Below, one piece after another: positions 4,669 through 33,523 of a stretch of 64,000 nt of DNA. Every line of letters starts with the position of its first letter. Within the stretch, counting starts at the first letter, position 1. Position numbers and translations under genes: made by a program. Below the pieces are notes generated by a model, which was given only the letters and a program-made list of their open reading frames with translations, was not told the origin of the DNA and searched no databases. This DNA comes from Bacilli bacterium (GTDB lineage Bacteria > Bacillota_I > Bacilli_A > RF39 > UBA660): assembly GCA_022791775.1 (NCBI GenBank), contig JAAVZT010000033.1:8356-72355 (forward strand). Reading direction: 5' to 3'.

Positions 4669-6630
4669 TTATGAAGTCACAACAAATGGATTGGAAACAG
4701 TTCCTGTTCCTCCTGTAATTATAGTATTTTGATTTAGGTTTATTACTGCACGCACACCAGCTGCCGTTAACACATTATCTGAATAATGAACATATCCCAA
4801 TCGAGACTCCTTCATCACTCGTGACGTTCCAGAAGTGGTAAGAAACCAACTTGGAGACATTGTCCAATACGTCAAACTAGAATGAGCATAGCTTAATTTG
4901 TTTAAATAACCTTCCGCCATTCCAGCATATTGAAGTTCATCAGACGTAATCAGTCCAATTGGATATGTTAAAGCTCCATTTCCTTTTTCTTCACTTACCG
5001 TAAATCGATCCCCCTCTTGATGACACATCAATGTCGGTTCTTGATCCACTCTCAGTCTTTGATGAGGCATATAATATGTATTTTGAGTTGTACTCATTCC
5101 ATCTCCACTTTGTAATCCTCGATCATTACAAAAAATACTATCCGCTACTTTATCATGATATCCTTTTTCTAAAATATTCTTTTGATACCAATTATCTAAT
5201 ACCGTTTTTATCGTACTATCTTTCTCATTCTTACTTGCATTCTCATATGTATCTAAATTATTTCCATACATATATCCTACATATCCTGGTAAATTACTTT
5301 GACTGTTATATACACTATTTTTCTTATCCAATGATAGTTCAATTCCATTAGCAGTCGGAGTGTTTCCCGCATATAAAAGCCTTACACTTCCATCTCCATT
5401 TAAACGAATAATTCGCCAGTAGAATCCTGCAAATTTCACATAATTATTATTCACACTTCCCCGATAATAATAACTCTCTCCATTATCATCTAAAGTCATA
5501 TATAACCCTTTATCTGATTTATCACTTTCTAATTCCTTTTGATTATATCGATTTCCACTTAGATTATATTGAATCATTTGAAATGTGTTTCCAGATGAAC
5601 CAGTTTGTATAGAATCTTCTTTCGTAGCACTTCCGATTTTATAAATTTCAGTACAATTTTCATAATTTCGATAGGGACTCATTACATCACTAGCACTAAT
5701 GTTAACACCCGCACCACAATAATAATAATCCTTAGTATCATAATCTGTAATCGTCGTAGGATCAATTAAAAATGAGTCCGTTAAAGTATATTTTCCTGTT
5801 TCAGAATCAAAAGTATAACCATTTGATAATCTCAAATAACTTTGTTCAATATTCGTAAATCCTTGATATTGTCCTACTTTATCTGGATGAGGTAAAACCG
5901 GTCTTGTAGTAAGTGTATTCATCTCATGATTCTCTTGCCAATCTATTAATGGGGCTGTTTTACTAAAATCAGGTACTTGTTTATTCTTGATTAGATTTTT
6001 AGCCTGTTCTACACTAGAAGACTGATATTCATTTACAAGCATTGCTTCTGCTAACGTTTGAAACCCTAGATCTACTGGACTATACGTACTTGGGACAACT
6101 GTCACAGATACTTTTGCTTGGAATAACTTGTTCATCGCTTCCATACTTTCTACACTTTCGTCCATCCATACTCTTAAATTAAAGATTTCACTATCTTCTG
6201 GAGATAAAGAGCCCCTTTGTAACACTCTACTTTCCTGAAATCCATTTAAAGGCTCTACTTCTTCATACTCATTTAACTTTTGGACTGGATTTCGATCTAA
6301 TACTGCTGCAATATATTGACTTTCTAATGTACTCGTCGATAACATACTTAAAGTAATATCATAACTAACAAATAAACTACAAGTATTAGTAATTGTAAAA
6401 GTATAAGGTGTCAGTTTTACTCCTTCACTATTTAATAAAGGGTATGCATTTTCTAATTTAATCTCCTTACTATTACTAATAATTTCGACATCAATACATC
6501 CACTCGTAACATTACTAAATCCACTTTGCTCTTTTGTAAAATACCAATAAGCATAACTCACTCCAATCACAAGAAAAAAAGTCAAAACAATTCCCAAAAT
6601 AATCCAACGTTTCTTTGTCATAATAACCAC
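4669..6630 (-). CDS. N-terminally membrane-anchored large surface protein (653 aa), own transcription unit downstream of the T4SS operon
   Basis: Single N-terminal TM (WIILGIVLTFFLVIGVSYAYWYF) and a large hydrophilic ectodomain. It is separated from virD4 by a terminator hairpin. Confidence 0.6.
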   Translation of the reverse strand: MVIMTKKRWIILGIVLTFFLVIGVSYAYWYFTKEQSGFSNVTSGCIDVEIISNSKEIKLENAYPLLNSEGVKLTPYTFTITNTCSLFVSYDITLSMLSTSTLESQYIAAVLDRNPVQKLNEYEEVEPLNGFQESRVLQRGSLSPEDSEIFNLRVWMDESVESMEAMNKLFQAKVSVTVVPSTYSPVDLGFQTLAEAMLVNEYQSSSVEQAKNLIKNKQVPDFSKTAPLIDWQENHEMNTLTTRPVLPHPDKVGQYQGFTNIEQSYLRLSNGYTFDSETGKYTLTDSFLIDPTTITDYDTKDYYYCGAGVNISASDVMSPYRNYENCTEIYKIGSATKEDSIQTGSSGNTFQMIQYNLSGNRYNQKELESDKSDKGLYMTLDDNGESYYYRGSVNNNYVKFAGFYWRIIRLNGDGSVRLLYAGNTPTANGIELSLDKKNSVYNSQSNLPGYVGYMYGNNLDTYENASKNEKDSTIKTVLDNWYQKNILEKGYHDKVADSIFCNDRGLQSGDGMSTTQNTYYMPHQRLRVDQEPTLMCHQEGDRFTVSEEKGNGALTYPIGLITSDELQYAGMAEGYLNKLSYAHSSLTYWTMSPSWFLTTSGTSRVMKESRLGYVHYSDNVLTAAGVRAVINLNQNTIITGGTGTVSNPFVVTS

Positions 6631-6712
6631 CTAACACTAGTATGAACAAATAAAGAGGAAAAATATACTCTCTACTTTACAACATCATATTATCATATTT
6701 TATAAAATTTGA

Positions 6713-6742
6713 CCACAAAAAATATACAACCAAGGTTGTATA
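6713..6742 (-). terminator. rho-independent terminator after the virD4-like gene
   Basis: Perfect 9-bp inverted repeat TATACAACC-AA-GGTTGTATA at 6723..6742, followed on the minus strand by TTTTTTGTGG. It starts 3 bp after the stop of the 6745..8967 gene. Confidence 0.7.
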
Positions 6743-6744
6743 AA

Positions 6745-8967
6745 TTATTCATCTCCAAAAAAATCATCAAAAAACTCATCATCTGTAATTAAATTATCAT
6801 TCATAATAATACTATCAGCATCCACATTTATTTTAGGCTTATCCTCTTGTTTTGGCTCCAATTTTGGTAAAACTGGTTCTTGAGGCTTTAAATGATTTTC
6901 ATCGATTGACACTGGATTCATAAATGCAAAACCATGTTTCTCCTGCATTTCATTAGAAGTTTCTAAAGGCTTCGGTAATTCAGCTAAAAACGGATTTTCT
7001 TGTTTCTTTTGTTTTTCTTTGGCTTCTTCTTCATCTAATTCTTTTAGTTTTTTATCAATATCAGCAATCATTCTATCAATATCAGAATCAGACAAATTAT
7101 TTGGCATAAACGGATTTGATTTTGGCATTTGATTCGGAAACATCGAAGAAGGACCAAAAGGATTTCCAAATAAATTTGGTTCTCCACCATTAGGTGGCAT
7201 AAACGGATTAAATGGACTTTGACTACCTTCTGGCTGATTTTCCATATCTTGCATCATCTTTTTTCGTTTTTCTTCTGAAACATATTTTTTTAAATCAAAT
7301 AAGGAAATTTCCCTCATTTCTCGAATAGGTAATTCAGCCATTTTTCGCTCAATTCCCCAATCCATTTTAAAATCAGGCTCTAATTTAGTCTTAAAAGGAT
7401 TCATTCGCAAACGGATCACAATGACTTCAAATAAACGCATTTTTTGCAAATCTGTAACTGTTACAAGCGGAGTACTTGCAGTTTTATCTTTTTCTCCACT
7501 TTTGACTTCTCCACACATTTTACTGATTTCTTCTAAAGCTGCCATTTCAGTACTAATCAAATAAATCCAGTTTCCACAGTTTCCCTTAATAACTTCAGCA
7601 ACTTCTTTACCATAAACATCATTAAGCTGAGAAAAGTTTTGAATAATAAAAGTAAATCGAATATCGCGACTTCGGGCAGCAGAAACCATCGAATCGACAT
7701 CTTTTAGTGGTGGCATATTAGCAAATTCATCTAAAATAAAATTAGTTCGATATGGAAGCTTTCCTCCATTTTCTTTTGCAACATCAATTAAAGTTTCATA
7801 ACATTGTTTAATAAAAATAGTGAGTAAACTATGATAAGTTGTCTTCTCATCATGAATAATCATAAAAACTGCCGTTTTTTGTTTTCCAATCGACCGCATA
7901 TCAAAATCACTATATGCTAACATTTCCGAAAGTTTTTCACGAGATGAAAACAAACGAATTTTCTGACGAAAAGTTGAAGTAATTCCTCCTTTGGTGTCAG
8001 TTGGAGCATTAATTGTATTAGAAGCAAAAATATAAGGACTAGAAGATTCTCCTTTTAAATTAAAATATTCTTTAATATAAGTACTTGTTGCAAATCGTTC
8101 TTCTCCTATTGTACTCATAAAATTGATCGAATTTAAATTTACTTCCTCTTCTTTTGCATCCAAAAATAACCCAAGCGCTAACCCAGAAAAATAATCGGCT
8201 GCACTTTTTTCCCAAAATGGATCTTTGCTATTTGGATCATTTAGAATATTTAAAGCCACGTCATCCAATAACTCGGTTGCCTTATCCGTATCGCCTGCTT
8301 GATAATAACGATATGGCAAAGATAGTGGATTCCAAGCATTTCCATTTTGAGGATCTCGGAAATTTAATACAATCACATTATAACCTTGCTCTTTTAAATA
8401 AGATGCACAATATTTATAAAGTTCTCCTTTTGGGTCAGTAATAATCATACTTTCCCCTTTTTTCGCCAATAAATTTACCATTGGTTTTACGACAGTTTCA
8501 GTTTTACCAGAACCAGTTGATCCAATAATCAAATTATGATATTCGCCGTTATCTACCCAAATATCTGTTCCATTATTAATAAGAGGAATTCCTGCCGCCA
8601 TTACATTAGAATCAGATGCTTTGACATGAGCAACGCCTTTATCTTCTTTAATTTCCTTTTCTTTCGCCCATCTAGAATAACCCTTTTCTTCTTTTTCTTT
8701 AAAGGTTAAAAAATGCTTACTACTTTTCGTTCGTTCAAAAATATAAGAAGAAACACTAGAAAAAATAATAATTAAAGCACATACAAACATCATCAAGGTC
8801 AAAATAATTTTATCTCCATAAAATGCTTCAATGGGATTTAAACCATAAAAAGAACCATCATTTGCAAAAGAGGAAAAATTGAGCACAGCAATTGCGCACA
8901 AATAAAGTAAAAATACACAAAATGCAATAAATATAGCAAAATCTTTCGGTGCAACTCGAAACTTCAT
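6745..8967 (-). CDS. virD4: type IV secretion coupling protein (VirD4/TraG/TraD family ATPase) with a long Pro/Phe/Asn-rich C-terminal tail
   Basis: Two N-terminal TM helices, Walker A LIIGSTGSGKTETVV, a Walker B-like FILDEFANM, and TraG/VirD4-like architecture. The last roughly 180 aa are low-complexity NPF/FxP repeats plus an acidic C-terminus. Confidence 0.85.
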   Translation of the reverse strand: MKFRVAPKDFAIFIAFCVFLLYLCAIAVLNFSSFANDGSFYGLNPIEAFYGDKIILTLMMFVCALIIIFSSVSSYIFERTKSSKHFLTFKEKEEKGYSRWAKEKEIKEDKGVAHVKASDSNVMAAGIPLINNGTDIWVDNGEYHNLIIGSTGSGKTETVVKPMVNLLAKKGESMIITDPKGELYKYCASYLKEQGYNVIVLNFRDPQNGNAWNPLSLPYRYYQAGDTDKATELLDDVALNILNDPNSKDPFWEKSAADYFSGLALGLFLDAKEEEVNLNSINFMSTIGEERFATSTYIKEYFNLKGESSSPYIFASNTINAPTDTKGGITSTFRQKIRLFSSREKLSEMLAYSDFDMRSIGKQKTAVFMIIHDEKTTYHSLLTIFIKQCYETLIDVAKENGGKLPYRTNFILDEFANMPPLKDVDSMVSAARSRDIRFTFIIQNFSQLNDVYGKEVAEVIKGNCGNWIYLISTEMAALEEISKMCGEVKSGEKDKTASTPLVTVTDLQKMRLFEVIVIRLRMNPFKTKLEPDFKMDWGIERKMAELPIREMREISLFDLKKYVSEEKRKKMMQDMENQPEGSQSPFNPFMPPNGGEPNLFGNPFGPSSMFPNQMPKSNPFMPNNLSDSDIDRMIADIDKKLKELDEEEAKEKQKKQENPFLAELPKPLETSNEMQEKHGFAFMNPVSIDENHLKPQEPVLPKLEPKQEDKPKINVDADSIIMNDNLITDDEFFDDFFGDE

Positions 8968-9070: not shown

Positions 9071-9778
9071 TTATACATCCATATGATTCTTACGTTGGTT
9101 ATAATTATAAACTAAAATTCCCACCACAAAGAAAAGAAATGCTCCTAATATGATAAGGGCGAATCCTGTATGATCTTGATTCACTTCTTTTTCCTCTTGT
9201 TTTGGACCATCAACTTCTCCTTTTAAAGCTAATTGAATAGAAGTAGACTTATAATTATCTCTTGTCACATTCCAAATAAGAATTTGCCCTAAAACTTGAT
9301 CTGCATTATGGTTTAAAATATCGTATTCCGTCAAAACTTGAATGGTAAGATTAGAAATATCGGGATAATCATCCATACAATAAGCTCCAACACTAGATTG
9401 AAAAACAGTAGTATTAGAAGACTCATCATAATCATAATAAATACTTTCAAAACAAGAATGAATTGCAGTCGATTTTCGATATTGACTACTTGGATAATTA
9501 TAAGAAAGAAGCCAACTTTGATAACCATTTTTTTCCAAAACATCTTTTTTCAAATAGGAAACCCCATCTAACATAACTGGCTCTTCACTCGTTACAGGAG
9601 CATCATAATAAGCTGGAATGGGCCACGGATCATCTTGTAACATATCACTTTCATGCTTTGTTTCTGCCTGAATAGAAACTTGCTCTCGATATTGATGGTC
9701 TGCTATAGTAACCGTATAATTTACACTGCAGCCACTCATTAAAAATATACCAAACAATAAAAGAATTATTTTTTTCAT
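9071..9778 (-). CDS. lipoprotein with C-terminal TM anchor (candidate VirB8/TcpC-like scaffold)
   Basis: Lipobox LMSGC after the signal peptide, C-terminal hydrophobic helix, and position between the coupling protein and the hydrolase as in Gram-positive T4SS loci. The VirB8-like assignment is positional only. Confidence 0.45.
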   Translation of the reverse strand: MKKIILLLFGIFLMSGCSVNYTVTIADHQYREQVSIQAETKHESDMLQDDPWPIPAYYDAPVTSEEPVMLDGVSYLKKDVLEKNGYQSWLLSYNYPSSQYRKSTAIHSCFESIYYDYDESSNTTVFQSSVGAYCMDDYPDISNLTIQVLTEYDILNHNADQVLGQILIWNVTRDNYKSTSIQLALKGEVDGPKQEEKEVNQDHTGFALIILGAFLFFVVGILVYNYNQRKNHMDV

Positions 9779-18440: not shown

Positions 18441-18444
18441 ATTA

Positions 18445-23688: not shown

Positions 23689-23928
23689 TTATTTATTATT
23701 GTTATTTGGACAAGTAACTTTTTCACTTACACCTTTTTCATTCAAATATTGACAAGTACAAGTATTTCCTTTACTACAATCACAATTTGTAACATTTGCA
23801 CATTTAGTACTATTTAAAATATTAGTCTTAATACTTGGCCATATAAATGCATAAAAGAATGCGGCTACAGCAGCAATTGCCACAACAGTAACAACTGTCA
23901 TATTTAATTCTCCGGTTGCTTCTTTCAC
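23689..23928 (-). CDS. Flp-size pilin-like protein 2 (79 aa) with Cys-rich C-terminus
   Basis: GTG start. KEATGELNMTV is identical to its paralog although the DNA differs at synonymous sites. Hydrophobic helix, then a tail with 7 Cys. Confidence 0.4.
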   Translation of the reverse strand: MKEATGELNMTVVTVVAIAAVAAFFYAFIWPSIKTNILNSTKCANVTNCDCSKGNTCTCQYLNEKGVSEKVTCPNNNNK

Positions 23929-25688: not shown

Positions 25689-26798
25689 CTACAATGTTTC
25701 CATTGCTGTATTTTGTTCCCCTGCTTCCATACTGGCTCTTTCATCTAAATGAAAGATATCTGAAGGTAATGTAACACCCTGAATACCCAAATAATCTCGC
25801 AAATATTTCGTCGGATTATTCATCACTAATTCTCCAGTTAAATTCTTTCGAAAAATCGTATTCACTTGGGGTCTATTATCTTCATCTACATAAAATTCAC
25901 AAACTTCCATAATTTCACGTTGAAATCTACCCAGTTCTTTACTTAAATAACCTTTTACATATATCCCAATTTGTACATAACGATGAATGGTAGTTAAAAA
26001 TTGATCTACATCCAAATTAGATTCCAACAAACTAAACATACGAAGTGGAATCAAACTTGCTTTATCAGAATGGATGGTTGATATAATATGATGCCCTGAA
26101 GAAATCGAATTTCGAACAGCTGTAACAGCTTCTGCACTACGTACCTCAGAAAGCAAAATCCAAATTGGATTCTGCCGCATACAGGTAACCAATACTTCTG
26201 AATAACTTGCAATATTATTTGTTTTCATTGCAACAATATCTCGGTGAGGAAAAATTTTATCTAAATGAAGTTCTAATGTATCTTCAATGGTAATAATCTT
26301 TTCATTTTCCTTCGTATGACTTGCCAAATATTTAACTAATTCAGTTTTACCAGAACCAGTTTCACCACTCACTATAATATTGGCATGTCCTTGAACACAA
26401 CTTAACAAAAAGTTTAGAATTTCTTCTGAAACATATTTTTCATCCAACAATTTTTCACGATTTAATCTTATCTTTGCTGGCGTTTTACGAATTACACAAG
26501 CAATTCCATTTGTAGCAATTGAATCATGCACAAAATTAAGACGCAACTCGGCACTTTCCGCATCAAGAAAAGGATGAGCCATATTGAAGGTCTTTCCCAT
26601 AACATTAGCACATTGAAATGCTAATTTCTCCATCAAGGGATCATTGATATCGGGCCTGTCAACTTGATAAACACCTTTATCCAAAGTTTTTAGCCAAACG
26701 CGACCATTATTACTATACGAAATATCAGTTATATTATCATCAACCAAAAAATCATTCAATGGTCCAAAATCAATTTGCGAAAAGACAGCTTCATGCAT
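25689..26798 (-). CDS. VirB11/TadA(CpaF)-family secretion ATPase
   Basis: Walker A IIVSGETGSGKTELV, Asp box ITIEDTLEL and His box RQNPIWILLSEVRSAEAVTAVRNSISSGHHIISTIHS. 369 aa. Confidence 0.85.
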   Translation of the reverse strand: MHEAVFSQIDFGPLNDFLVDDNITDISYSNNGRVWLKTLDKGVYQVDRPDINDPLMEKLAFQCANVMGKTFNMAHPFLDAESAELRLNFVHDSIATNGIACVIRKTPAKIRLNREKLLDEKYVSEEILNFLLSCVQGHANIIVSGETGSGKTELVKYLASHTKENEKIITIEDTLELHLDKIFPHRDIVAMKTNNIASYSEVLVTCMRQNPIWILLSEVRSAEAVTAVRNSISSGHHIISTIHSDKASLIPLRMFSLLESNLDVDQFLTTIHRYVQIGIYVKGYLSKELGRFQREIMEVCEFYVDEDNRPQVNTIFRKNLTGELVMNNPTKYLRDYLGIQGVTLPSDIFHLDERASMEAGEQNTAMETL

Positions 26799-26812: not shown

Positions 26813-27667
26813 TTATTCATTTGTATTATTATTATTATTATTATCGTTATTTATATTTCCGGAATTTATTGTATTATTAGGTGCTCCCTCTGGAATAACG
26901 ACAGATTGTGACAAGATAAAATCTTGAATATAAGCACTTGACACTCTAGTTTCTCCAGGATTTGCTGAATAAGAAGCATTTCTTGGCACTGGAATTATTT
27001 CAACACTGTTTCCAGAAATGTAATTTGCTTTCTTTAATAAACTAAACATATCATCTGGAACTGCAAATACCAATACAGCAGGAATACGTGCCTCAACCGA
27101 AGTTTCAAATACATGTTGTCCTTCTGAATCACGTACATCTAATACTTCAATACTTTCAATTAATTTACCAAAAATAATCTTTCGATTTTCATCAAATCCT
27201 TTAAAATACAAATCAATGTAATTACCTGGATAAATAGAATTTCCATAAGTAGAATTAATATCCACATCTAAATAAATAATTGTATATCCATCCGGGATAT
27301 TACTAATCGCAAAATCAGGAGTGTTAGCTGCATCTGTAATTTGCTCTGTATAGAAAAAACCATTTTGCGGAATCATATTCCCATATTGAACTTGCTTTCC
27401 AACTAATTGACTAGCATTCTGAATTAAATTTTTACTTTTACTAACTACTTCTCTAGATACCTCCATATATCCAATATCTTCCAATGTTATTTCATGTCTT
27501 GAAATAAGTTGATTTTTAGCATAAGGAATTTGAACTGGATCGGTAGCTTGTTTTACTCTCCAAGTATATCCTATATAAAGTACTAAAATTCCCGCAATAA
27601 CTCCGATGATCGTTACTGTATTCTTATTTCCTAAAAATCGTTTAATTGATGTTAAAACATTTCCCAT
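26813..27667 (-). CDS. CpaB/RcpC-like (SAF-domain) pilus assembly protein candidate with poly-Asn C-terminal tail
   Basis: N-terminal TM then a SAF-like region (LISRHEITLEDIGYMEVSREVV). C-terminal NNDNNNNNNTNE is encoded by an (ATT)n run. Confidence 0.4.
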   Translation of the reverse strand: MGNVLTSIKRFLGNKNTVTIIGVIAGILVLYIGYTWRVKQATDPVQIPYAKNQLISRHEITLEDIGYMEVSREVVSKSKNLIQNASQLVGKQVQYGNMIPQNGFFYTEQITDAANTPDFAISNIPDGYTIIYLDVDINSTYGNSIYPGNYIDLYFKGFDENRKIIFGKLIESIEVLDVRDSEGQHVFETSVEARIPAVLVFAVPDDMFSLLKKANYISGNSVEIIPVPRNASYSANPGETRVSSAYIQDFILSQSVVIPEGAPNNTINSGNINNDNNNNNNTNE

Positions 27668-27724: not shown

Positions 27725-28612
27725 CTATCTATTATTAATAATATCACGTATATCTGGAATATTTCCCTTTAAATAAGGTCTAATTCTACTGATAATAACT
27801 AATTTTTCTCGCTCTGTAAATGTAATACCATAATCTTGTTCAAAATCTTCGATAAATTTACTTTCTTTATTTGGTCGATGAAGAGGAAAGCATCTGTTTA
27901 AAATAGAAACAGAATTACTATAATACAAATCTCCACTAATTGTTCCAGAATTAGATCCTGTAGTTGAATTATCTTCCCGATCTCCACTAGAATTATTTGA
28001 ACTAAGACCTGGACACCAAAAATAACGATTTAAATTTTCAGAAAGATAAGCCAAAAGTTGTCTTTCTGTTGGAATACGACTTATATTTGGATTATAAATA
28101 TAAGATAAGTTATCATCAGACCCCGAATTATCTAAACTTGGAGGTGTTCCAGTAGAAGGTGTCACATTATTCGGACGTGTAGCATTTTCCATAACACTAC
28201 TTCCATTTGATGCCCCATTTAATTCTAATACAGCATCAATTTTTTCTACAATATCAAAACTAGTTGAATCTCCCATTACACGATAAGTGCCACTTTTGGT
28301 TGTAACTTTCACGCTGGCTTTTGGAGGAGCTTCATAAATATCATAAAAATCTATTTGATAAGTATTAATTGAAGCATTCTCCGCAAATCTTCGCAAGAAA
28401 TTCTCTACAAATTTCTCGCGATTAATTCGAAGTTCTGAGAATTGACGATAATAACTATAATCAATAGCATCTACCATTGCGGCTTCCGTAACATCTTTGA
28501 TCATATAATAATCTTGTGTACTAGAAGAGGTAACATTAGAAACTAACATCATAATGACTACAACGAAAATTCCCAATAGGATAATCCAATATCCCCATAA
28601 AGATTCTTTCAT
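27725..28612 (-). CDS. pseudopilin-like membrane-anchored protein (295 aa)
   Basis: N-terminus MKESLWGYWIILLGIFVVVIMMLV shares the short polar leader, Gly-x-Trp and hydrophobic helix pattern of the TadE-like pair. Confidence 0.35.
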   Translation of the reverse strand: MKESLWGYWIILLGIFVVVIMMLVSNVTSSSTQDYYMIKDVTEAAMVDAIDYSYYRQFSELRINREKFVENFLRRFAENASINTYQIDFYDIYEAPPKASVKVTTKSGTYRVMGDSTSFDIVEKIDAVLELNGASNGSSVMENATRPNNVTPSTGTPPSLDNSGSDDNLSYIYNPNISRIPTERQLLAYLSENLNRYFWCPGLSSNNSSGDREDNSTTGSNSGTISGDLYYSNSVSILNRCFPLHRPNKESKFIEDFEQDYGITFTEREKLVIISRIRPYLKGNIPDIRDIINNR

Positions 28613-28624
28613 CTAACTCCCCTC

Positions 28625-31600
28625 CTACTTCCAAGCTGGTCCTAAACCATCAGATACCACATATTTTGTACCATTTGTGAAATATCCACTATTCGGCCAT
28701 AAAATCCATTCAGTATTTCGTGCTTTTTCTTCAAAATACTTTCCATTTCCTTCACTTAAGAAATTACTGCGACATACCAAATTCGCATAGGATTTATTTT
28801 CATATACACGAGACTCACAAACTAAAGCATCTGTATTATTATCATCCATTCTAACATTCAAATATCCACCAACGGCTTTATTGTATTCACGAATTCGCTT
28901 CATTTGAAGTGGATTAATCACATAAGAGTATTCTGGCGTTTCATAAATATTCTCTGCCGACTCCTCTATTTTCGTTTGTGTATACTTTCCTTTTACATTC
29001 TGCCAATTAAAACCATATTCTCGTTCATTTGGCATTAAATTATTGATAGAAACAGTTCGGTAAAAGAAATTGTTATTTTGTGTAAAAATACAATCTGGAC
29101 ATTCTGAAATACATTCAGGACAATCGTCATCTGGCACAATTTCACAAGGCCACGGATCACATTTCACATCGCAATTTGGACAATTATTTACATAAAAACA
29201 TACATAACCAGCTGTTACTGTGCTTTTAGAAGCATTAAATACACTATTGCTAGTTCCAATTAAACGACCTGGTGTATTCGAATCATTAAATTGCCCTACA
29301 TGTGAGATTGTAAAATCAAAATTAAACACTCCTGTTTTTTGATTTAGAGAAATCGGTAAACAAGCACCGCTTCCATCACACAAATTAGTATAAAGAACAT
29401 ATTTATCTTGACTCTTATCTAAAGCTATTGTTCCAGAAGGAACATAAATTGAAAACTTATTATTTGGACGATAAACTTGATTTTGAACAGTAGCTGTTTT
29501 ACTAACATATTTTGCATTACTTACATTACGAGTTTCAATATAACAACCATTTGCATTACAATTTATATATTGCTCAGCCTGTTCTCCTGCAACATCTGTT
29601 GTCGATTGCGCACAATTATATTGATTATCAACAGATCCTGCACAATAAGAAGCACTATTTTTAACATGAATTGTTCCAGTCTCAAATTTATTATTAAAAC
29701 CAGACATATTTTGATATGGTTCATCATATTTGAAAGTTATCGAAGGATCAAAAGCAAATTCATTTGACCAACCATTACTACAATCATTATATTGTTTAAA
29801 AATTTTATTAATATTAGCAAGATTAGCCTTATATGCTGTTTCATATTCAGAAATTTTTGCATTAACTCGACCTTCAACAGTTTCCTTAGAACCATCTGTA
29901 CAAGTAGGTGAAGCTCCACAACCACCATCACTAGCACTTCCATCAGAACTTACAATATCTGCTCCTTGATTTGAAATGCCAGATGAAATATGCATTTGAC
30001 CATTTCGATCATAAGAATAACTTAAACTAGTATAATTATAACTTTCAACATACCAAACAGTAGCTGAACATGAGCCAGAACTAGTACAACCACACTCAGA
30101 ATAACCATCAGCACAAGTTTTAGACTCTGTATGCCCAACAGCCGTTTTAGTTTCACTTTCAATATGACTCAAAGCAGTTTTATATCTTACATATTCATTA
30201 TAATTAGCAATTAATTTTTGGAATTCTTGATCTAAATCATAACGGAAACGAACGTGATCTATTCCATTAAATTGACTATCTTTTACGCCATTAAAATCTT
30301 CTCGACCATTTACATAACAAGTACGAGTTCCAGAAACTTTAGTTTCTAATTCAAAGTAACTTCCACTCATTGTATATTCTGAATTTGGTAATTTAAATTC
30401 ATAATTTTCCACACAACTTACTTTACAATAAGGATTATTAGATACTGTATCTTGATCAGTCATTTCAAAAGAATTTCCAGCTTTATCATGATTTTTAGCA
30501 TTAAATAAACAATATTTAATTTGTGCATCATCTTTTACATCTTTTACATGATTTACTAAGAAATCATTATTACTATTAAATTCGGTACATTTACCAATAA
30601 AATTAATATCTGGATCTTTTCCACAATCAATACTCTGTCCACCACAATACCGTTTATAATCTTCACTATTTTTATCTAATACTTGGCAACATCCCAATGC
30701 TGTTTCAGAATAATAATTATCTTTTGTCGTAATATTACCAGCAGCATCATAATAATTACCATTCTCATAACGACAATACTTTGGAGTACATTCTAATAAA
30801 TATTGTGTTTCATCGACTTCTGTTCCATCTTTGCCATAATGCACACCATTAATAATTTCACAAGTTCGTTTATTTCCTTCTCCACATTTTTGCTCAAATT
30901 CCATTTTAGAATAGAAATATTTTCCATTTTTATAATCATCTTGATTTGCCCAACCATATTTATCATTAGTTTGCTCTGCTTTTGGAACAAAAGAACAATA
31001 TAACGGACATTTATGGGCAACCATTTCATCAGTCGTAGTTAACTTCTGATCTCCATAGTAGACGTCCCCATTTTCTCGATAATAACATTCCAAACCAAAA
31101 TTATCACAATAAGTTTGAAAATCTGTCTTATTAAAATAATAACTATTTCCGTAGGTTACTTTACCCCACATATTTTCAGAAGCCCAACCGTAATGATTAT
31201 CATTTCTAGTACTATCTGGAAATAACTTACACATTAACGCACAACCATAATGAACCATATCCATTTCATTAGTTAATTCATATGGTGTACCAATTTGTGC
31301 GTTTGTTTCTATAGAATAAGTATATAGCATTGGCTTACCTGAAGATGTTACACATTTTGTATAGATTTTGTTTCCTGTATTTGGACAATTATATCGAATT
31401 TGTTCTTCAACAGTAAGTTCTTCCTTCCTAGAAGTTTCTTTTCCGTCTTTATAAGTAACATAATCAAATGTCCCATCCGGTTGCTCTTCACAACCATCAG
31501 CATATACGTGATGACGTTGACGAGAAGGTGGAGCAGATTGAATAGACATGTTTCCATCAGCTACAACCAACATTTTTTGCATAGAAGCATTTGTAGGCAC

Positions 31601-32641
31601 ATTAAGAAGCATTATATTAGAGCCGGAAGCTTTAACATCATAATAGCTAGAATCAAAATATAATTCATATGTTTTTCCATCATAATTATTCATTCGTTCT
31701 ACTGTAATAACTACTTTTCCTGTTTTGCCAGACCCTTCTGCTCTCGAAGTACATTTTACGGTACTATTTTTACAACCTCCCACAAATTTATTCCAAAAAA
31801 TATGAGAAGGTGCCTCCCCATGAGAAGCATCTAAATGAATCGTAAATTCTTCCATGTTATCGCCTTTCACAACTTTATCGATAACATATGTATAAGTATC
31901 TCCCCATAAAGTTGTATCTTGTCCTGGACCAGACGGAACTAAATCTTCATATTTTTTTCCTGCTAAAATTTCATTTCCAGCTTCCATTGCTTTTTTATAA
32001 ACTTCTTTTGCATAAGAAATATCTGCAGCATAAGAAATATTCTTACCGCTTTCATCTTGTAAAGGAACATCCCAATACTTTACAGTACCATCTTGATTAT
32101 GTTCAGAGAACAATTTTAAAACATCATCTGCTCCTCTTTCATAAGCTTTCCCTGTATCTCCTAAACCATAATTATAAGAAAGCCATCGAAAAACTAATTC
32201 ACCAACAATTCGATCTTCATTTGACATAGTAGCACGACCATCTGCTAATAATTTTTGATATGCTTTCGTAATCGCTACATCATATGCTTGTAAAGTAATA
32301 TTCCCATTCGAACTTAGACCTGAAGGATCGATAACTCGTTCACAAGAATAATTTGGTCTACGAGGAGAATTAACATCAAGATGTGCTCCCCCAAGTTTAG
32401 CTGGAGACATACAATAAGTTTTTAAGTTTACTCCTCCACTAGAAGTATTATAAAATCTAAGCTGATAATTATAATCTCTTTGACCTGAAATAGAATAACC
32501 TAATCCATGTGGAATATAAACTTCCCCTCCATAGGTAACTTGATAACTTCCACTCGGACAAAGTGATTCTGCAGATACCATACTAGGTATTAATATAAGC
32601 AATAAAAATCCATACAATATTTTGGAAACATATTTCATCAT
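28625..32641 (-). CDS. giant secreted cysteine-rich protein (1338 aa), candidate pilus-associated adhesin or surface component
   Basis: Sec signal peptide (LLLILIPSMVSA) and about fifty Cys by eye. Internal roughly 45-aa repeats (..NDxYGWA...YxFxKxxFxxxC). Dense C-terminal CPxC cluster (NNCPNCDVKCDPWPCEIVPDDDCPECISECPDC). Confidence 0.7.
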   Translation of the reverse strand: MMKYVSKILYGFLLLILIPSMVSAESLCPSGSYQVTYGGEVYIPHGLGYSISGQRDYNYQLRFYNTSSGGVNLKTYCMSPAKLGGAHLDVNSPRRPNYSCERVIDPSGLSSNGNITLQAYDVAITKAYQKLLADGRATMSNEDRIVGELVFRWLSYNYGLGDTGKAYERGADDVLKLFSEHNQDGTVKYWDVPLQDESGKNISYAADISYAKEVYKKAMEAGNEILAGKKYEDLVPSGPGQDTTLWGDTYTYVIDKVVKGDNMEEFTIHLDASHGEAPSHIFWNKFVGGCKNSTVKCTSRAEGSGKTGKVVITVERMNNYDGKTYELYFDSSYYDVKASGSNIMLLNVPTNASMQKMLVVADGNMSIQSAPPSRQRHHVYADGCEEQPDGTFDYVTYKDGKETSRKEELTVEEQIRYNCPNTGNKIYTKCVTSSGKPMLYTYSIETNAQIGTPYELTNEMDMVHYGCALMCKLFPDSTRNDNHYGWASENMWGKVTYGNSYYFNKTDFQTYCDNFGLECYYRENGDVYYGDQKLTTTDEMVAHKCPLYCSFVPKAEQTNDKYGWANQDDYKNGKYFYSKMEFEQKCGEGNKRTCEIINGVHYGKDGTEVDETQYLLECTPKYCRYENGNYYDAAGNITTKDNYYSETALGCCQVLDKNSEDYKRYCGGQSIDCGKDPDINFIGKCTEFNSNNDFLVNHVKDVKDDAQIKYCLFNAKNHDKAGNSFEMTDQDTVSNNPYCKVSCVENYEFKLPNSEYTMSGSYFELETKVSGTRTCYVNGREDFNGVKDSQFNGIDHVRFRYDLDQEFQKLIANYNEYVRYKTALSHIESETKTAVGHTESKTCADGYSECGCTSSGSCSATVWYVESYNYTSLSYSYDRNGQMHISSGISNQGADIVSSDGSASDGGCGASPTCTDGSKETVEGRVNAKISEYETAYKANLANINKIFKQYNDCSNGWSNEFAFDPSITFKYDEPYQNMSGFNNKFETGTIHVKNSASYCAGSVDNQYNCAQSTTDVAGEQAEQYINCNANGCYIETRNVSNAKYVSKTATVQNQVYRPNNKFSIYVPSGTIALDKSQDKYVLYTNLCDGSGACLPISLNQKTGVFNFDFTISHVGQFNDSNTPGRLIGTSNSVFNASKSTVTAGYVCFYVNNCPNCDVKCDPWPCEIVPDDDCPECISECPDCIFTQNNNFFYRTVSINNLMPNEREYGFNWQNVKGKYTQTKIEESAENIYETPEYSYVINPLQMKRIREYNKAVGGYLNVRMDDNNTDALVCESRVYENKSYANLVCRSNFLSEGNGKYFEEKARNTEWILWPNSGYFTNGTKYVVSDGLGPAWK

Positions 32642-33408
32642 AATATTCTACTCCTCCGCTTTTTCAAAATCACAATAGCCGATAGAGCCCCTCCGATAAT
32701 TATTACAACAACGACGCTAATAATTATCGTTCGATGTTCGGAAATAAAATCACTTAGATTATCCCAAAAACTTTTATTCTTTTCTTCTTCTTTCTTTTGT
32801 TGTAACTTAGAATATTCTTCTCCAATTCGTTTTGTTATCTCAGACTCTGATGCATAAAACGGAGTCGTAATAAATTCCTGACAAAACTCATAATTTGGTA
32901 AATCAGCACAGGCACTGATATCAGAATAATGATTCCGCATTGGTGTGCTATAATCGATGGTTCTTAAATTATCTCCCTTACATCTCGGGGAATTAGAATA
33001 AATGGTAATTTTATAATTAACAATTTCACTAAAATCTCCTCCATCAAATTCTAACACTCCATCTTTCATATCCTTATAATAAAAAGTTTGTTCAAAATTA
33101 TTGCTTCCTTTAACATGAATATAAATATCATCAGTCATATTTAAGATATTTACTAAAGCTTTATCCATAAAGCCATAGTCATCATAACCTGCATTTTCAG
33201 AATACGCTTCTTCTGGAAGAGTATCATAATAATTTCCATTCACATCAAAATAAACTCGCTTTTTTTCATAATTCATTTTAATTGCTGCTGCATAGTTACT
33301 TAATTGGACCTGTTCCGAATAATCACACGTCGATGCTGCATTCACATCTACCCCCACCAAAAGTACCCACAACAAACATCCTAAAAACACTTTTTTAAAA
33401 TATTTCAT
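32638..33408 (-). CDS. secreted protein with C-terminal TM anchor and basic tail; first gene of the cluster
   Basis: Signal peptide, about 200-aa ectodomain with 5 Cys, C-terminal TM plus KKRRSRIL. ATGA overlap with the giant gene. Confidence 0.55.
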   Translation of the reverse strand: MKYFKKVFLGCLLWVLLVGVDVNAASTCDYSEQVQLSNYAAAIKMNYEKKRVYFDVNGNYYDTLPEEAYSENAGYDDYGFMDKALVNILNMTDDIYIHVKGSNNFEQTFYYKDMKDGVLEFDGGDFSEIVNYKITIYSNSPRCKGDNLRTIDYSTPMRNHYSDISACADLPNYEFCQEFITTPFYASESEITKRIGEEYSKLQQKKEEEKNKSFWDNLSDFISEHRTIIISVVVVIIIGGALSAIVILKKRRSRIL

Positions 33409-33437
33409 AAGTCACCAACCTAAAAATTCACATTGTT

Positions 33438-33466
33438 ATTGTAGCACAGCCCAATTGCAATTTCAA
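33438..33466 (-). promoter_or_regulatory. sigma-A-type promoter for the T4SS/Tad cluster (-35 TTGAAA, 17-bp spacer, -10 TACAAT on minus strand)
   Basis: On the minus strand, TTGAAA (complement of 33461..33466) and TACAAT (complement of 33438..33443) are spaced 17 bp apart, about 30 bp upstream of the ATG at 33408. Two CAATTGC motifs at 33452..33458 and 33474..33480 overlap and flank it. Confidence 0.55.
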
Positions 33467-33523
33467 GCTAGAACAATTGCGAAGCAAAAAAAAGTATGAT
33501 ATATTTTTAAAAGGTGATTAAAA

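Follow-up and report, generated by a model that had tools for sequence, protein, structure and literature searches.

Judged from its gene content, the conjugation apparatus of Bacillota mobile elements already combines a T4SS of Gram-positive type with a Tad-like pilus module. Homologues of VirB11, VirB4 and VirD4 were reported in 2005 for pAW63/pXO2/pBT9727 (PMC1196294), and T4SS together with cpa/tad genes in 2010 for Listeria LGI1, pXO1 and clostridial islands (PMC2834635). The Bacillus thuringiensis plasmid pBMB67 has genes for a MobP3 relaxase, a CD1115-type VirD4, TrbL, PrgI and a split VirB4, and further ones for a SAF/CpaB protein, two ATPases (one ParA-like, one of the T2SS/T4P/T4SS kind), two membrane proteins of ~250-300 aa and small pilin-size proteins. 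Among the annotated genes of pXO1 are cpaB, an AAA ATPase gene, a CpaF/VirB11 gene and PrgI. A like layout is present on the Mycoplasmatota plasmid zrk4, there with a canonical Flp (G/xxxxEY) and a Pfam-positive T2SSF protein, and NCBIfam already holds a model for a "pilin-like conjugal transfer protein" of Mycoplasma ICEs (NF045849). The initial annotation of the DNA studied here had stated that VirB2 pilins, VirB11 and Tad machinery are all missing from known monoderm T4SSs, which is contradicted by pBMB67, pXO1, zrk4, LGI1 and NF045849. Its suggestion of an undescribed system class is likewise unsupported, as the gene combination has precedents on mobile elements of Bacillus and Listeria.

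The locus lies within a stretch of 64 kb from an uncultured gut bacterium that forms spores; the stretch was analysed as a whole and is called the window below. According to the ORF list of the window, 25 co-directional minus-strand ORFs, each 50 aa or longer, follow each other in an unbroken run from 33408 to 4669; about 27 genes had been proposed, and the common direction was confirmed with the count corrected to about 25. The run contains two linked gene sets. The T4SS set codes for VirD4, VirB3, a two-ORF VirB4, a protein resembling VirB6, a SpoIID/NlpC-P60 hydrolase and five hairpin pilins of VirB2 type. In the Tad-like set are the genes for an ATPase of CpaF/VirB11 type, for two platform-like proteins that are paralogues, for two Cys-rich pilin-like and three DUF5411 pseudopilin-like proteins, and for one CpaB-like and one TadZ-fold protein. 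In order of the run the features are:

32638..33408, minus strand: p256, opening the run; signal peptide and 5 Cys, with KKRRSRIL behind the C-terminal membrane anchor
28625..32641, minus strand: p1338, secreted Cys-rich protein, candidate tip or adhesin; 1338 aa, 51 Cys, signal-peptide-like N-terminus
27725..28612, minus strand: DUF5411 protein, 295 aa; pseudopilin-like N-terminal membrane helix and low-complexity tail (PF17424, 1e-53)
26813..27667, minus strand: CpaB/RcpC-like SAF protein (RcpC 5.5e-4, TIGR03177 3e-5)
25689..26798, minus strand: secretion ATPase of the CpaF/TadA-VirB11-FlaI group, 369 aa (T2SSE 5e-25)
24781..25674, minus strand: plat1, polytopic membrane protein, probable TadB-like platform subunit
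23990..24778, minus strand: plat2, distant plat1 paralogue, probable TadC-like platform subunit
23689..23928, minus strand: flp1, pilin-like, 79 aa; MKEATGELNMTV, hydrophobic helix, 6-Cys C-terminal domain
23430..23660, minus strand: flp2, flp1 paralogue, 76 aa; 4 Cys, ends CVWKG
22892..23410, minus strand: pp1, DUF5411 pseudopilin-like; N-terminus MREAIGGTWL and membrane helix
22402..22887, minus strand: pp2, second DUF5411 pseudopilin-like protein, by family clustering
21360..22379, minus strand: TadZ/CpaE-like; receiver-like N-domain and ParA/MinD-fold domain with degenerate P-loop HAGSTT lacking Lys
17422..21294, minus strand: five VirB2-type hairpin pilin genes (20911-21294, 19559-20872, 18445-19629, 17982-18470, 17422-17880)
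14979..17435, minus strand: VirB6/TrbL-like polytopic protein with ~350-aa hydrophilic C-terminal extension
14649..14960, minus strand: VirB3/PrgI-like protein (PF12666, PrgI, 4e-5; positions 2-96 of NF045975)
12312..14662, minus strand: split VirB4 ATPase (N part 14093-14662, C part 12312-14096, ATGA overlap)
9791..12244, minus strand: membrane-anchored cell-wall hydrolase, SpoIID-like and NlpC/P60-like
9071..9778, minus strand: lipoprotein with C-terminal membrane helix; lipobox read from the sequence
6745..8967, minus strand: VirD4 coupling protein, CD1115 family, with ~240-aa low-complexity acidic tail
4669..6630, minus strand: p653, closing the run; a large extracellular domain preceded by an N-terminal membrane helix or signal

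The strong sigma-A-type promoter proposed at 33438..33466 does correspond to a promoter-like site (33466-33438; TTGAAA, 17 nt, TG-TACAAT; 10/12 matches), but such sites are no commoner in the window than in shuffled sequence (73 found, 64.8 expected). A second one with 11/12 matches precedes flp1 at 23984-23956. At the two ends of the run p256, with zero matches in Pfam, has relatives at ~33% identity in 21/80 related loci, and p653, for which searches of Pfam, NCBIfam and PDB gave nothing, is the final minus-strand ORF ahead of the rhodanese gene; its family occurs in 26/80 related loci and varies in length and position.

Profile matches in Pfam and NCBIfam largely bear out the T4SS core and the Tad-like module of the initial annotation, and on this evidence its VirB2-type pilin array and missing DNA-processing genes hold up as well, with small corrections. 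VirD4 is matched by PF02534 (1e-55) and, above the model's cut-off, by NF045973 of the CD1115 family (1.6e-88). The two VirB4 pieces, described before as translationally coupled, align with successive parts of the Mycoplasma ICE VirB4 model NF045975, the N part with positions 93-276 (3e-16; also covered by a precomputed PF26593 TraC-like match) and the C part with positions 294-891 (5e-103). Both pieces are found in ~20 related species loci. A frameshift as origin of the split was rejected, since pBMB67 has the same split, which is therefore ancestral. The VirB3 assignment was confirmed by the PrgI and NF045975 matches, and the VirB6 assignment finds support in weak matches to TrbL_4 (1e-3) and to pLS20_p028, MMCAP2_0566 and Mbov_0396 (~1e-6). 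The hydrolase matches SpoIID with 1e-13 and NlpC/P60 with 5e-4, the latter under the gathering score, and the lipoprotein, which gave only generic weak lipoprotein matches, has the lipobox expected from the earlier reading.

Nine protein families of the window match pBMB67 counterparts in similar order when profile HMMs are compared. For the T4SS genes the values are 4e-87 (VirB4 C part), 1.4e-23 (VirB4 N part), 1.1e-76 (VirD4) and 4.5e-5 (VirB3), and for the Tad-like genes 2.6e-53 (ATPase), 1e-39 (CpaB), 6e-12 (plat1), 3.4e-9 (plat2, to hyp244) and 1e-3 (TadZ). By these comparisons the ATPases, the split VirB4, VirB3, VirD4, CpaB and both platform proteins are homologous to the plasmid sets. 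Whereas pBMB67 has a MobP3 relaxase, the window locus has none in cis, and one may lie at another place in the genome.

The predicted VirB11/TadA-family ATPase is confirmed by its T2SSE match. A PDB sequence search left CpaF (4.8e-17) and VirB11 HP0525 (9.5e-17) virtually tied, every NCBIfam match was under the cut-off, and the family HMM found the CpaF of zrk4 with 3e-49. The CpaB assignment is likewise sustained by the RcpC and TIGR03177 matches, and tblastn with this protein matched 359 plasmids, among them pXO1 with its "cpaB". The TadB/TadC-like proteins are a more indirect case: T2SSF models do not match plat1 or plat2 directly, but both are linked to T2SSF through plasmid homologues. 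For plat1, which has no match in Pfam and NCBIfam and a poor AF2 model (pLDDT 51), at least 7999 homologues were found, with 79-100% identity among the best-scoring 120. Its broad profile matches pBMB67 hyp305 (3.6e-20) and zrk4 hyp295b (3.6e-4), which themselves show weak T2SSF matches (0.14 and 0.064), and it also matches plat2 in register (2.2e-5). The zrk4 gene positioned like plat2 passes Pfam T2SSF with 4.9e-8. We therefore regard plat1 and plat2 as probable TadB-like and TadC-like platform subunits.

In 125/129 members of the flp family a common N-terminal motif is followed by the hydrophobic helix, and every member has an even Cys count. Unlike canonical Flp, flp1 and flp2 have no G/xxxxEY but MKEATG and then ELNMTV. 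The first 28 residues of pp1 can be aligned to the N-terminus of the flp proteins (hhalign E 1e-3), and pp1, pp2 and the 295-aa DUF5411 protein form one BLAST family; the three candidates had been called TadE-like, a model they do not match, while their pseudopilin-like character stands. No prepilin peptidase was found by Pfam among all sizeable ORFs of the window, nor in the 8.5 kb to its left. The large secreted protein p1338 is as Cys-rich as claimed, and Pfam and PDB searches with it matched nothing. Giant proteins also sit beside the Tad-like gene sets of pAW63 (1416 aa, annotated as cell-surface protein) and of the zrk4 plasmid (hypothetical, 1650 aa).

The array of VirB2/TrbC-topology hairpins was retained as a pilin-type array, with five members, all of one BLAST family, in place of six. 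PF18895 (T4SS_pilin) matches with 1.6e-7, 1.4e-5 and 3.3e-4, of which only 1.6e-7 is above the gathering score. Two of the five have ~300-aa N-terminal extracellular domains, and a C-terminal CxxC...P..C motif is present in 72/106 family members. The DNA repeats D1 and D2 reflect the paralogy of these genes.

Where relatives of the T4SS genes have been characterised, the closest ones are all on conjugative plasmids or ICEs, and VirD4 belongs to a conjugative family. The locus could thus be an ordinary integrated conjugative element or plasmid with relaxase, integrase and att sites beyond the region examined. We consider this highly improbable. As the initial annotation had it, Pfam found no relaxase, integrase or replication protein on any sizeable ORF of the window, no direct repeat brackets the locus and the base composition is that of the flanks (0.29-0.36 GC throughout). 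Neither tRNA genes nor att-like repeats were found in the window, and the next 8.5 kb past its left edge, checked for a relaxase or integrase with att sites, again lacks these and any replication gene. The flanking genes are those for tRNA synthetases and enolase, sporulation genes, rmuC, bacA and dacB, and the CAAX/metallophosphoesterase and rhodanese/RmuC anchors reappear around the locus in other species. A single marker gene has relatives in at least 577 species-level genomes from uncultured gut Bacilli, and the locus architectures track the TadZ tree clade by clade. Between species-level genomes the motor proteins share 80-84% identity, which also speaks against an integrated element. Because of the shared flanks, the missing tRNA and att repeats, the uniform composition, the wide occurrence and the clade-following architecture, the locus is read as chromosomal, situated between housekeeping and sporulation genes, and vertically inherited. 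Many of the related MAGs were deposited as "Tenericutes" or "Mycoplasma sp."

The motor proteins are under strong purifying selection and the surface parts evolve rapidly. dN/dS is 0.02-0.2 for ATPase (0.03-0.13), platform proteins, VirB4 and VirD4, and 0.3-0.8 for VirB6 (0.3-0.6), hydrolase and p1338 (0.6-0.7 at ~30% identity). The mini-module flp-flp-pp-pp-TadZ is present in 80/80 related loci, compared with ~48/80 for ATPase and platform genes and ~21/80 for VirB3/VirB4, many of the fetched loci ending at contig ends or at the 10-kb flank limit. These counts, the absence of the pilin, VirB6 and VirB4 block in some clades and the large, Cys-rich, fast-evolving surface proteins, as often seen in adhesins, would suit a mainly Tad-like pilus for adhesion to or colonisation of mucus, host cells or bacteria, with the T4SS genes dispensable or a decaying remnant of a conjugation module. 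We hold this to be unlikely, as both VirB4 pieces, VirB3 and VirD4 are intact where present (dN/dS ~0.1) and the VirB4 split is ancestral. Moreover, at least seven species have the order TadZ, hydrolase, lipoprotein, VirD4 with VirB4, VirB6, VirB3 and pilin genes missing, and a pure adhesion pilus leaves unexplained why hydrolase, lipoprotein and VirD4 outlast VirB4. The two halves of the locus are therefore separable, and VirD4, which is under purifying selection also in loci without VirB4, may serve something besides a canonical T4SS.

The T4SS of Xanthomonas kills bacteria, and contact-dependent delivery of proteins to neighbouring bacteria or host cells could be considered here too. The C-terminal half of the hydrolase differs among otherwise near-identical genomes, a domain swap expected for target-specific wall attack. 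The MAG labels suggest Mycoplasmatales-related Bacilli, and reduced genomes and partner dependence are described in the literature on Mycoplasmatales-related lineages, that is, for other genomes than these MAGs. The chromosomal, relaxase-less setting and the diversified VirB2-type array have been reported for Patescibacteria (CPR bacteria), too, and phylogeny relates the T4SS of that group to the MPF_FATA class (bioRxiv 10.1101/2025.01.22.634366). Nevertheless we hold protein delivery to be unlikely, as the locus has no candidate effector-immunity pairs or VirD4-recognition domains, every other unassigned protein has a Sec-type signal or a membrane anchor and the nearest relatives of VirB4 and VirD4, by sequence comparison, are DNA-transfer systems.

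A relaxase-less locus conserved in the chromosome, with pilus and membrane channel together, might also be a competence machine, in which the Tad-like pilus captures DNA and the T4SS parts import it. Parallels are H. pylori ComB, the archaeal Ced system and the Flp-dependent transformation of Micrococcus, and VirB4 and VirD4 have weak NCBIfam matches to CedD and CedB (2e-10 and 1.8e-4), which are, however, far under the cut-off. To our knowledge ComB works without VirD4, whereas VirD4 is the best-conserved T4SS part here, and Pfam found no ComEA-like DNA receptor, ComEC-like or DprA-like gene at the locus. DNA uptake is thus very unlikely.

On balance we favour derivation from the Bacillota conjugation apparatus of the kind found in pXO1, pXO2/pAW63/pBMB67 and Listeria LGI1: the locus would be a form of it without relaxase, fixed in the chromosome and inherited vertically, and thus a domesticated contact-and-transfer machine, whose function we infer from these relatives. 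The CpaF/VirB11-type ATPase, the TadB/TadC-like pair, the TadZ-like and the CpaB-like protein would build a surface filament by polymerising the two small pilin-like proteins with their disulfide bonds, primed by the DUF5411 pseudopilins and probably tipped by the Cys-rich p1338. The filament would touch another cell or a surface, the hydrolase would open the cell wall, and VirD4 would feed a macromolecular substrate to a translocation channel of VirB4, VirB3, VirB6 and the VirB2-type hairpins. We take DNA to be the most probable substrate, via export or a relaxase-independent exchange as in Mycoplasma chromosomal transfer, with proteins as a second possibility.

As far as the compared genomes indicate, what is unusual here is the chromosomal, relaxase-less and lineage-wide setting: a known gene combination would have been domesticated and conserved across hundreds of species of uncultured gut Bacilli.

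The locus consists of 25 open reading frames of at least 50 aa, which lie head to tail on the minus strand from 33408 to 4669, separated by short gaps or overlapping. Profile searches confirmed most of the gene calls of the initial annotation. For the T4SS part and its neighbours they gave the following picture:

6745-8967, minus strand: VirD4-type coupling protein, matching PF02534 at 1e-55 and the CD1115 family model NF045973 with 297 bits (cut-off 250)
9071-9778, minus strand: lipoprotein
Minus strand: VirB4 in two ORFs overlapping in ATGA, a 189-aa N-terminal piece (VirB4-N) and a 594-aa C-terminal piece (VirB4-C), matching the Mycoplasma ICE VirB4 model NF045975 at 3e-16 and 5e-103
Minus strand, preceding VirB4: VirB3/PrgI-like protein of 103 aa, PrgI at 4e-5
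Minus strand: polytopic VirB6-like protein of 818 aa, TrbL_4 at 1e-3 and Mbov_0396, MMCAP2_0566 and pLS20_p028 at about 1e-6
Minus strand: hydrolase of 817 aa with a SpoIID/LytB domain (SpoIID 1e-13, TIGR02669 2.6e-22) and an NlpC/P60 match of 5e-4, which is below the gathering score
17422-21294, minus strand: array of VirB2-type hairpin pilins
4669-6630, minus strand: p653, the product of the last gene

These products include the VirD4-type coupling protein, the VirB4-family ATPase (also matched by PF19044 and PF12846), the VirB3/PrgI-like and VirB6/PrgH/TrbL-like proteins and the cell-wall hydrolase of a Gram-positive (MPF_FATA-type) T4SS. The VirB3-like and VirB6-like matches are all weak, yet they are mutually consistent and the gene order agrees with them. 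On the 894 positions of NF045975 the VirB3-like protein covers positions 2-96, the N piece of VirB4 93-276 and the C piece 294-891, so that three consecutive ORFs tile one Mycoplasma-type VirB3-VirB4 protein. A VirB8-like scaffold (PrgL/TcpC, NTF2-fold) gave no Pfam match among any of the products; the lipoprotein is a candidate for this role. The C-terminal part of VirD4, about 240 residues (6745-7470, minus strand), is a low-complexity tail with much Pro, Asn, Glu and Asp. Its identity is 34-69% per 50-residue window as compared with 62-92% for the ATPase core, and it may be a substrate- or partner-docking region. The protein p653 begins with a membrane helix followed by SYAYWYFTKE, a stretch which resembles SipW-type (TasA/camelysin-class) signal peptides, with no family match in support; p653 matched nothing in Pfam, NCBIfam or the PDB sequences.

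The hairpin pilin array had been described as a group of six. The array is indeed present, with five paralogous genes, which lie upstream of the other T4SS genes. In each product the C-terminal part of about 70 residues forms a two-helix hairpin, and two of the five carry in addition N-terminal extracellular domains of about 300 aa. One of the five passes the Pfam model T4SS_pilin (PF18895), two are just below the threshold, and all five belong to a single BLAST family, in which 72 of 106 members end with a CxxC...P..C motif. With this array the locus provides a monoderm example of diversified VirB2-type pilins, to which attention had lately been drawn in Patescibacteria only.

Most of the remaining genes of the cluster form the module which was initially compared to Tad/Flp pili:

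28625-32641, minus strand: p1338, a Cys-rich secreted protein, 1338 aa
26813-27667, minus strand: CpaB-like protein, 284 aa
25689-26798, minus strand: ATPase, 369 aa
24781-25674, minus strand: plat1, platform-like membrane protein, 297 aa
23990-24778, minus strand: plat2, platform-like membrane protein, 262 aa
Minus strand: flp1 and flp2, small pilin-like proteins, 76-79 aa
Minus strand: three pseudopilin-like proteins, 161, 172 and 295 aa
21360-22379, minus strand: TadZ-like protein

The ATPase belongs to the T2SSE superfamily (5e-25). Among PDB sequences it is equidistant from CpaF (4.8e-17) and VirB11 (9.5e-17), and all its NCBIfam subfamily scores are far below the cut-offs. The CpaB-like protein, encoded upstream of the ATPase, shows weak but consistent RcpC/CpaB matches (5.5e-4 and 3e-5). 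The TadZ-like protein has the domains of TadZ/CpaE, namely a receiver-like domain and an atypical ParA/MinD ATPase domain. It was recognized by fold comparison alone, as its profile matched nothing among the PDB sequences. p1338 had no match in Pfam or among PDB sequences.

The two membrane proteins encoded downstream of the ATPase gene required a more indirect identification. Neither plat1 nor plat2 matched any Pfam or NCBIfam model, T2SSF included, and ten distant relatives of plat1 from a 50% representative library also gave no T2SSF match in Pfam. An AlphaFold2 model of plat1 computed from a 26-sequence alignment reached a pLDDT of 51, and its Foldseek matches to the PDB (E of at least 0.95) are noise and uninformative on the fold. 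However, plat1 and plat2 are distant paralogues which align in register with 2.2e-5 when a broadened profile is used, as TadB and TadC are. They are also homologous to the pairs of proteins which follow CpaF in the plasmids, one member of which passes T2SSF at 4.9e-8. A direct hhalign comparison of plat1 or plat2 with this T2SSF-positive protein, which is encoded by the Mycoplasmatota plasmid zrk4, was not significant, and a tblastn search of plasmids with plat1 returned nothing, the plasmid homologues being detected by profile HMMs only. On the best available evidence, that is gene position, paralogy and a chain of profile matches via the plasmids, plat1 and plat2 appear to be diverged TadB/TadC-type platform proteins.

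The small pilin-like proteins start with the near-invariant N-terminus MKEATGELNMTV, found in 125 of 129 family members. This is followed by a hydrophobic helix and a variable C-terminal part containing four, six or eight cysteines. The number of cysteines is never odd, which indicates that the C-terminal part is an extracellular, disulfide-bonded knob. The Flp processing motif G/xxxxEY is absent from this N-terminus, the pilin leader being MKEATG/ELN, and the Pfam Flp model gave no match. The three pseudopilin-like proteins form one family whose leader, MREAIGGTW..., aligns with the N-terminus of the small pilin-like proteins. They had been called TadE-like, but the TadE model is unmatched and the family is Pfam DUF5411. 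No prepilin peptidase (TadV/CpaA, peptidase A24) was found within the window. Of the proposed Tad part, the TadZ-like protein stands, the CpaB-like assignment is a weak one, and there are no Flp, TadE or direct T2SSF matches; we use "Tad-like" here as a description of the architecture, short of proven membership in the Tad family. A thioredoxin-like gene (33524-33964, plus strand) is divergent from the cluster and matches Thioredoxin_2 (1.5e-5) as well as the TraF family of the F plasmid (5.8e-5). Its product could serve disulfide formation in the Cys-rich secreted products; the 80 related loci (the best TadZ-like relatives, one genome per species) showed no homologue within the flanks available.

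According to the initial annotation, a T4SS core, VirB2-like pilins and a Tad-like module without DNA-processing genes make up an undescribed class of system. The plasmid comparisons do not support this. A tblastn search of plasmids with VirB4-C gave full-length matches of about 29% identity, the best being Bacillus thuringiensis conjugative plasmids and the Mycoplasmatota plasmid. In pBMB67 the genes follow in the order MobP3 relaxase, CD1115-type VirD4, a 126-aa hairpin protein, TrbL, PrgI, a 227-aa protein and a 630-aa DUF87 protein, the last two together representing the same split of VirB4 as in the window. Further on pBMB67 encodes an 851-aa protein, a SAF-domain protein, an AAA (ParA-like) ATPase and a T2SS/T4P/T4SS ATPase, followed by proteins of 305, 244 and 89 aa and a DUF4320 protein. 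We built profile HMMs of the window families from the 80 related loci and ran them against pBMB67.

Matches of the family profile HMMs to their counterparts in pBMB67 (E-value)
VirB4-C: 4e-87
VirD4: 1.1e-76
ATPase: 2.6e-53
CpaB-like (counterpart: the SAF protein): 1e-39
VirB4-N: 1.4e-23
plat1 (broad profile): 3.6e-20
plat2: 3.4e-9
VirB3: 4.5e-5
TadZ-like: 1e-3

Nine families are thus linked by profile HMMs, in a similar order, to the tra apparatus of the pXO1/pXO2/pAW63/pBMB67 type. Like the locus, the tra regions of pXO2, pAW63, pBT9727, pBMB67 and pXO1 combine a CD1115-type VirD4, a PrgI/VirB3 protein, a TrbL/VirB6-like protein and a VirB4 in the same two ORFs with a SAF/CpaB protein and a ParA-like ATPase. 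They also have in common with it a CpaF/VirB11-type ATPase, whose gene is immediately followed by those of two membrane proteins of about 250-300 aa, as well as small proteins of pilin size and a giant protein of the cell surface. In pXO1 we find cpaB, an AAA ATPase, a gene of the "CpaF/VirB11 family", a 310-aa protein and PrgI. The plasmid zrk4 has the same layout; its second membrane protein is the one which passes T2SSF, and canonical Flp motifs (G/SPSLEY) are present in its small proteins. The two proteins after these show weak, sub-threshold TadE and Tad (PF13400) matches (E 0.16 and 0.027), and a 1650-aa protein follows.

There are also clear differences. The plasmids carry a MobP3/MOBP relaxase and replication and partition genes, whereas the locus is chromosomal, lacks these and is not carried on a self-transmissible replicon with a MOBP-type relaxase. 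Identity to the tra proteins of the B. cereus-group plasmids is only about 25-30%. The locus has the five-gene VirB2-type array, DUF5411 instead of DUF4320 and Cys-rich pilin-like proteins, and its TadZ-like gene is situated at the opposite end of the module from the ParA-like gene of the plasmids. The plasmid genes are Tad-like by annotation, and a functional test of them is absent from the cited papers.

The combination of components has been in the literature since 2005-2010. Homologues of VirB11, VirB4 and VirD4 were described in pAW63, pXO2 and pBT9727 in 2005, the flanking genes being left hypothetical, and a 1416-aa surface protein is encoded close by (PMC1196294; reviewed in PMC9673590). 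In 2010 virB4, virD4, virB11 and virB5/6 were reported together with cpa/tad genes in the Listeria island LGI1, pXO1 and clostridial islands (PMC2834635). By description, LGI1 of Listeria monocytogenes and the clostridial islands resemble the locus in joining T4SS and cpa/tad pilus genes in a Firmicute, but LGI1 was acquired horizontally, is putatively mobilisable, carries a primase and has a skewed composition. A pilus-like system has moreover been predicted in gut Clostridia: in Roseburia, Ruminococcus and Eubacterium, DUF5411 occurs in association with CpaF and PilC (PMC9523054). In view of the gene sets of pBMB67, pXO1 and zrk4, these reports (PMC1196294, PMC2834635), the Mycoplasma ICE pilin-like model NF045849 and the DUF5411 system, it was too strong to say that VirB2-type pilins, VirB11 and Tad parts are missing from monoderm T4SSs. 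The locus, in turn, puts a focus on Tad-like genes which are still uncharacterised and lie in the tra regions of Bacillus plasmids of the pXO1 and pXO2 types.

Three further systems are comparable in part. The best NCBIfam match of VirB4 (5e-103) is to the core of the Mycoplasma ICEs (pilin-like Mbov_0395, membrane protein Mbov_0396, VirB3-VirB4 fusion Mbov_0397), which shares with the locus the order pilin-like, VirB6-like, VirB3/VirB4; NCBIfam also holds for these ICEs a model named "pilin-like conjugal transfer protein", whose gene lies beside the VirB6-like and VirB4 genes. The VirB4 score of 345 bits is, however, below the equivalog cut-off of 590 bits, and VirB3 and VirB4 are fused in the ICEs and occupy three ORFs in the locus. 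Mycoplasma ICEs are mobile, and to our knowledge they have no Tad-like module. According to a preprint, the T4SSs of Patescibacteria (CPR) are MPF_FATA-related, chromosomal and mostly without a relaxase, and contain arrays of 2-11 divergent VirB2-like genes detected with PF18895 (bioRxiv 10.1101/2025.01.22.634366). The likeness to our locus, drawn from this description, comprises the chromosomal position, the missing relaxase and the VirB2-like array found with the same Pfam model; the phylum is a different one, and the word "tad" is absent from the preprint, with no linked Tad-like module reported in the passages on these systems. Tad/Flp (type IVc) pili and the locus have in common the superfamily of the ATPase, the pairing of platform-like proteins, a CpaB-like and a TadZ-fold protein, and small pilins with several minor pilin-like proteins. 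It differs in the leader (not G/xxxxEY), in the absence of a TadV peptidase from the locus, in the missing Pfam T2SSF, Flp and TadE matches and in the shorter ATPase.

The G+C content is about 30% across the window with no compositional break at the locus. The initial annotation was right that DNA-processing genes are absent: a Pfam scan of every sizeable ORF of the 64-kb window and of the next 8.5 kb beyond its left edge revealed no relaxase, integrase, transposase or replication gene. This includes the region just outside the window on the left, where a relaxase or integrase would have marked an ordinary integrated element. There is likewise no tRNA gene, no DDE recombinase and no pair of direct repeats bracketing the locus. 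The right flank contains genes for a thioredoxin-like protein, a CAAX protease and a metallophosphoesterase, cotZ, spoVE/ftsW, tyrS, an M29 peptidase gene, trmB, cse60, leuS, two sigma-70-type factors, enolase and others; the left flank contains rhodanese, rmuC, bacA, DUF3603 and dacB. A longer contig from this organism extends beyond the left edge and encodes there a glucosaminidase, a glycosyltransferase and two proteins with Gate (nucleoside-recognition) domains, which may be spmA/spmB. The flanking genes are conserved housekeeping genes. From the SpoIID domain and the sporulation neighbours a SpoIIIA-like sporulation channel was considered and rejected: the conserved parts all have homologues in plasmid conjugation, and the spore_III_AA match (7e-3) is negligible.

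Several other features of the window were recorded:

51681-51863, minus strand: T-box leader, above the Rfam gathering score
42884-43071, minus strand: T-box leader, above the Rfam gathering score
39722-39771, minus strand: intergenic Rfam "ssNA-helicase RNA" motif RF03070, 44.9 bits (gathering score 41.5)
51904-53322 and 53376-54812, minus strand: tandem paralogous sigma-70-type factors, 472 and 478 aa
2043-2993, minus strand: four ORFs of 57-77 aa overlapping the plus-strand bacA (2344-3156, PF02673 at 8.6e-72)

One T-box leader precedes an operon of a small ORF and leuS, the other the M29 peptidase gene and tyrS. In both sigma factors regions 2, 3 and 4 occupy the C-terminal half, and about 220 aa at the N-terminus form an unassigned extension. 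The four short ORFs over bacA are most likely spurious. Promoter-like sites are located upstream of the first gene of the cluster (33466-33438), the first small pilin gene (23984-23956, 11/12) and the first hairpin pilin gene (21354-21326). Since consensus promoter-like matches are no commoner than in shuffled sequence, the transcription units are putative. No riboswitch, for example for c-di-GMP, was found upstream of the operon or the pilin genes.

The module is widespread. In a metagenomic protein collection the TadZ-like protein has at least 6977 homologues, the best 120 of which are 66-100% identical and unnamed or called "hypothetical protein", and plat1 has at least 7999 (best 120: 79-100% identical). 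Relatives of the TadZ-like marker occur in at least 577 species-level genomes, counting one genome per species. The best 80 without exception are MAGs from the gut of mouse, rabbit, chicken, ruminants or humans, and they bear the labels Bacilli, Tenericutes, Erysipelotrichaceae, "Mycoplasma sp.", Ca. Ventrenecus or Ca. Caccenecus. A literature search for T4SSs or pili in RFN20/RF39 found nothing relevant.

All 80 loci contain a mini-module of two flp genes, two pseudopilin genes and the TadZ-like gene, and the full layout is that of the window's clade. Another clade has the order TadZ-like, hydrolase, lipoprotein, VirD4, rhodanese and RmuC with gaps of just 60-180 bp, and in at least seven species of it no pilin, VirB6, VirB3 or VirB4 gene lies between the TadZ-like and VirD4 genes. 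In these VirB4-less loci (L028, L046, L047, L048, L050, L055 and L077) the genes for hydrolase, lipoprotein-like protein and VirD4 are directly downstream of the TadZ-like gene, flanked by rhodanese in six of seven and RmuC in five of seven; L046 ends before both. VirD4 is under purifying selection in the VirB4-less loci. In other clades the mini-module alone is found between the CAAX/metallophosphoesterase genes and spoVE. Two such loci, L072 and L075, possess a second cluster about 6-9 kb downstream of the TadZ-like gene with four small ORFs, an ATPase of 480-485 aa from the same BLAST family and a 331-aa protein; this cluster could supply another motor or platform for a pilus. The architectures follow the clades of the TadZ tree and the flanking genes recur, a pattern which fits vertical inheritance with clade-specific loss or rearrangement and does not fit a mobile island.

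Pairwise Nei-Gojobori dN/dS values, which are rough because synonymous sites are near saturation, are 0.02-0.2 for the ATPase, both platform proteins, the TadZ-like protein, VirB4 and VirD4 (including VirD4 of the VirB4-less clade) and 0.3-0.8 for VirB6, the hydrolase and p1338. Median identity across the related loci is 84% for VirB4-C and plat1, 82% for the ATPase, 35-47% for the pilins, 30% for p1338 and 26% for the hydrolase. Between L047 (hydrolase gene 11144-13285) and L050 (11208-13181) the dN of VirD4, the ATPase and plat2 is 0.01-0.03. Despite these near-identical motor genes the C-terminal halves of the hydrolases are only 16-34% identical, which suggests that the catalytic or targeting domain is swapped between genomes.

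As judged from these comparisons, the locus is a Bacillota T4SS with an attached Tad-like module, a known and poorly studied kind. What distinguishes it is chromosomal fixation, loss of the relaxase, the diversified VirB2-type array, the non-canonical Cys-rich pilin-like subunits and the wide conservation in uncultured gut Bacilli. Going beyond what was observed, namely the parts list, the homology to conjugation regions, the absence of DNA-processing genes and the selection pattern, we propose that the Tad-like module would assemble a filament from small disulfide-bonded subunits, with the DUF5411 proteins as minor or priming pilins and p1338 as an adhesin at its distal end. This filament could establish or stabilise cell contact, in analogy to the type IV thin pilus of the IncI plasmid R64. 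The membrane-anchored hydrolase would then open the wall, and a substrate recruited by VirD4 would pass a channel of VirB4, VirB3, VirB6 and the VirB2-type hairpins.

DNA, in export or relaxase-independent exchange, would be our first choice for the substrate, since the family of VirD4 is a conjugative one and DNA is what all relatives move; relaxase-independent exchange has been described for Mycoplasma chromosomal transfer. The main alternative is that proteins would be delivered to neighbouring cells, as has been proposed for the relaxase-less T4SS of Patescibacteria. In one clade VirD4, the hydrolase and the lipoprotein are retained although VirB4 is missing from the locus. No canonical model accounts for this, and it suggests that VirD4 is functionally connected with the Tad-like module.

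It is conceivable, though in our judgement improbable, that a plasmid conjugation apparatus was domesticated as a core organelle by a whole clade of gut Bacilli which are uncultured and related to Mycoplasmatales. In it the disulfide-rich Tad-like filament, VirD4 and a swappable hydrolase would form a unit working even without VirB4, by which chromosomal DNA would be exchanged independently of a relaxase or partner cells engaged on contact, as a Firmicute counterpart of the essential T4SS of Patescibacteria. The clades represent a natural "deletion series" with the full system, the form without VirB4, VirB6 and pilins, and the mini-module alone, and this series allows the joint role of VirD4 and a Tad-like pilus to be tested in a walled monoderm. 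If our main reading of the locus is right, conjugation machinery would have been exapted on a large scale: in uncultured gut bacteria of a large and abundant group it would now be a stable organelle encoded in the chromosome.
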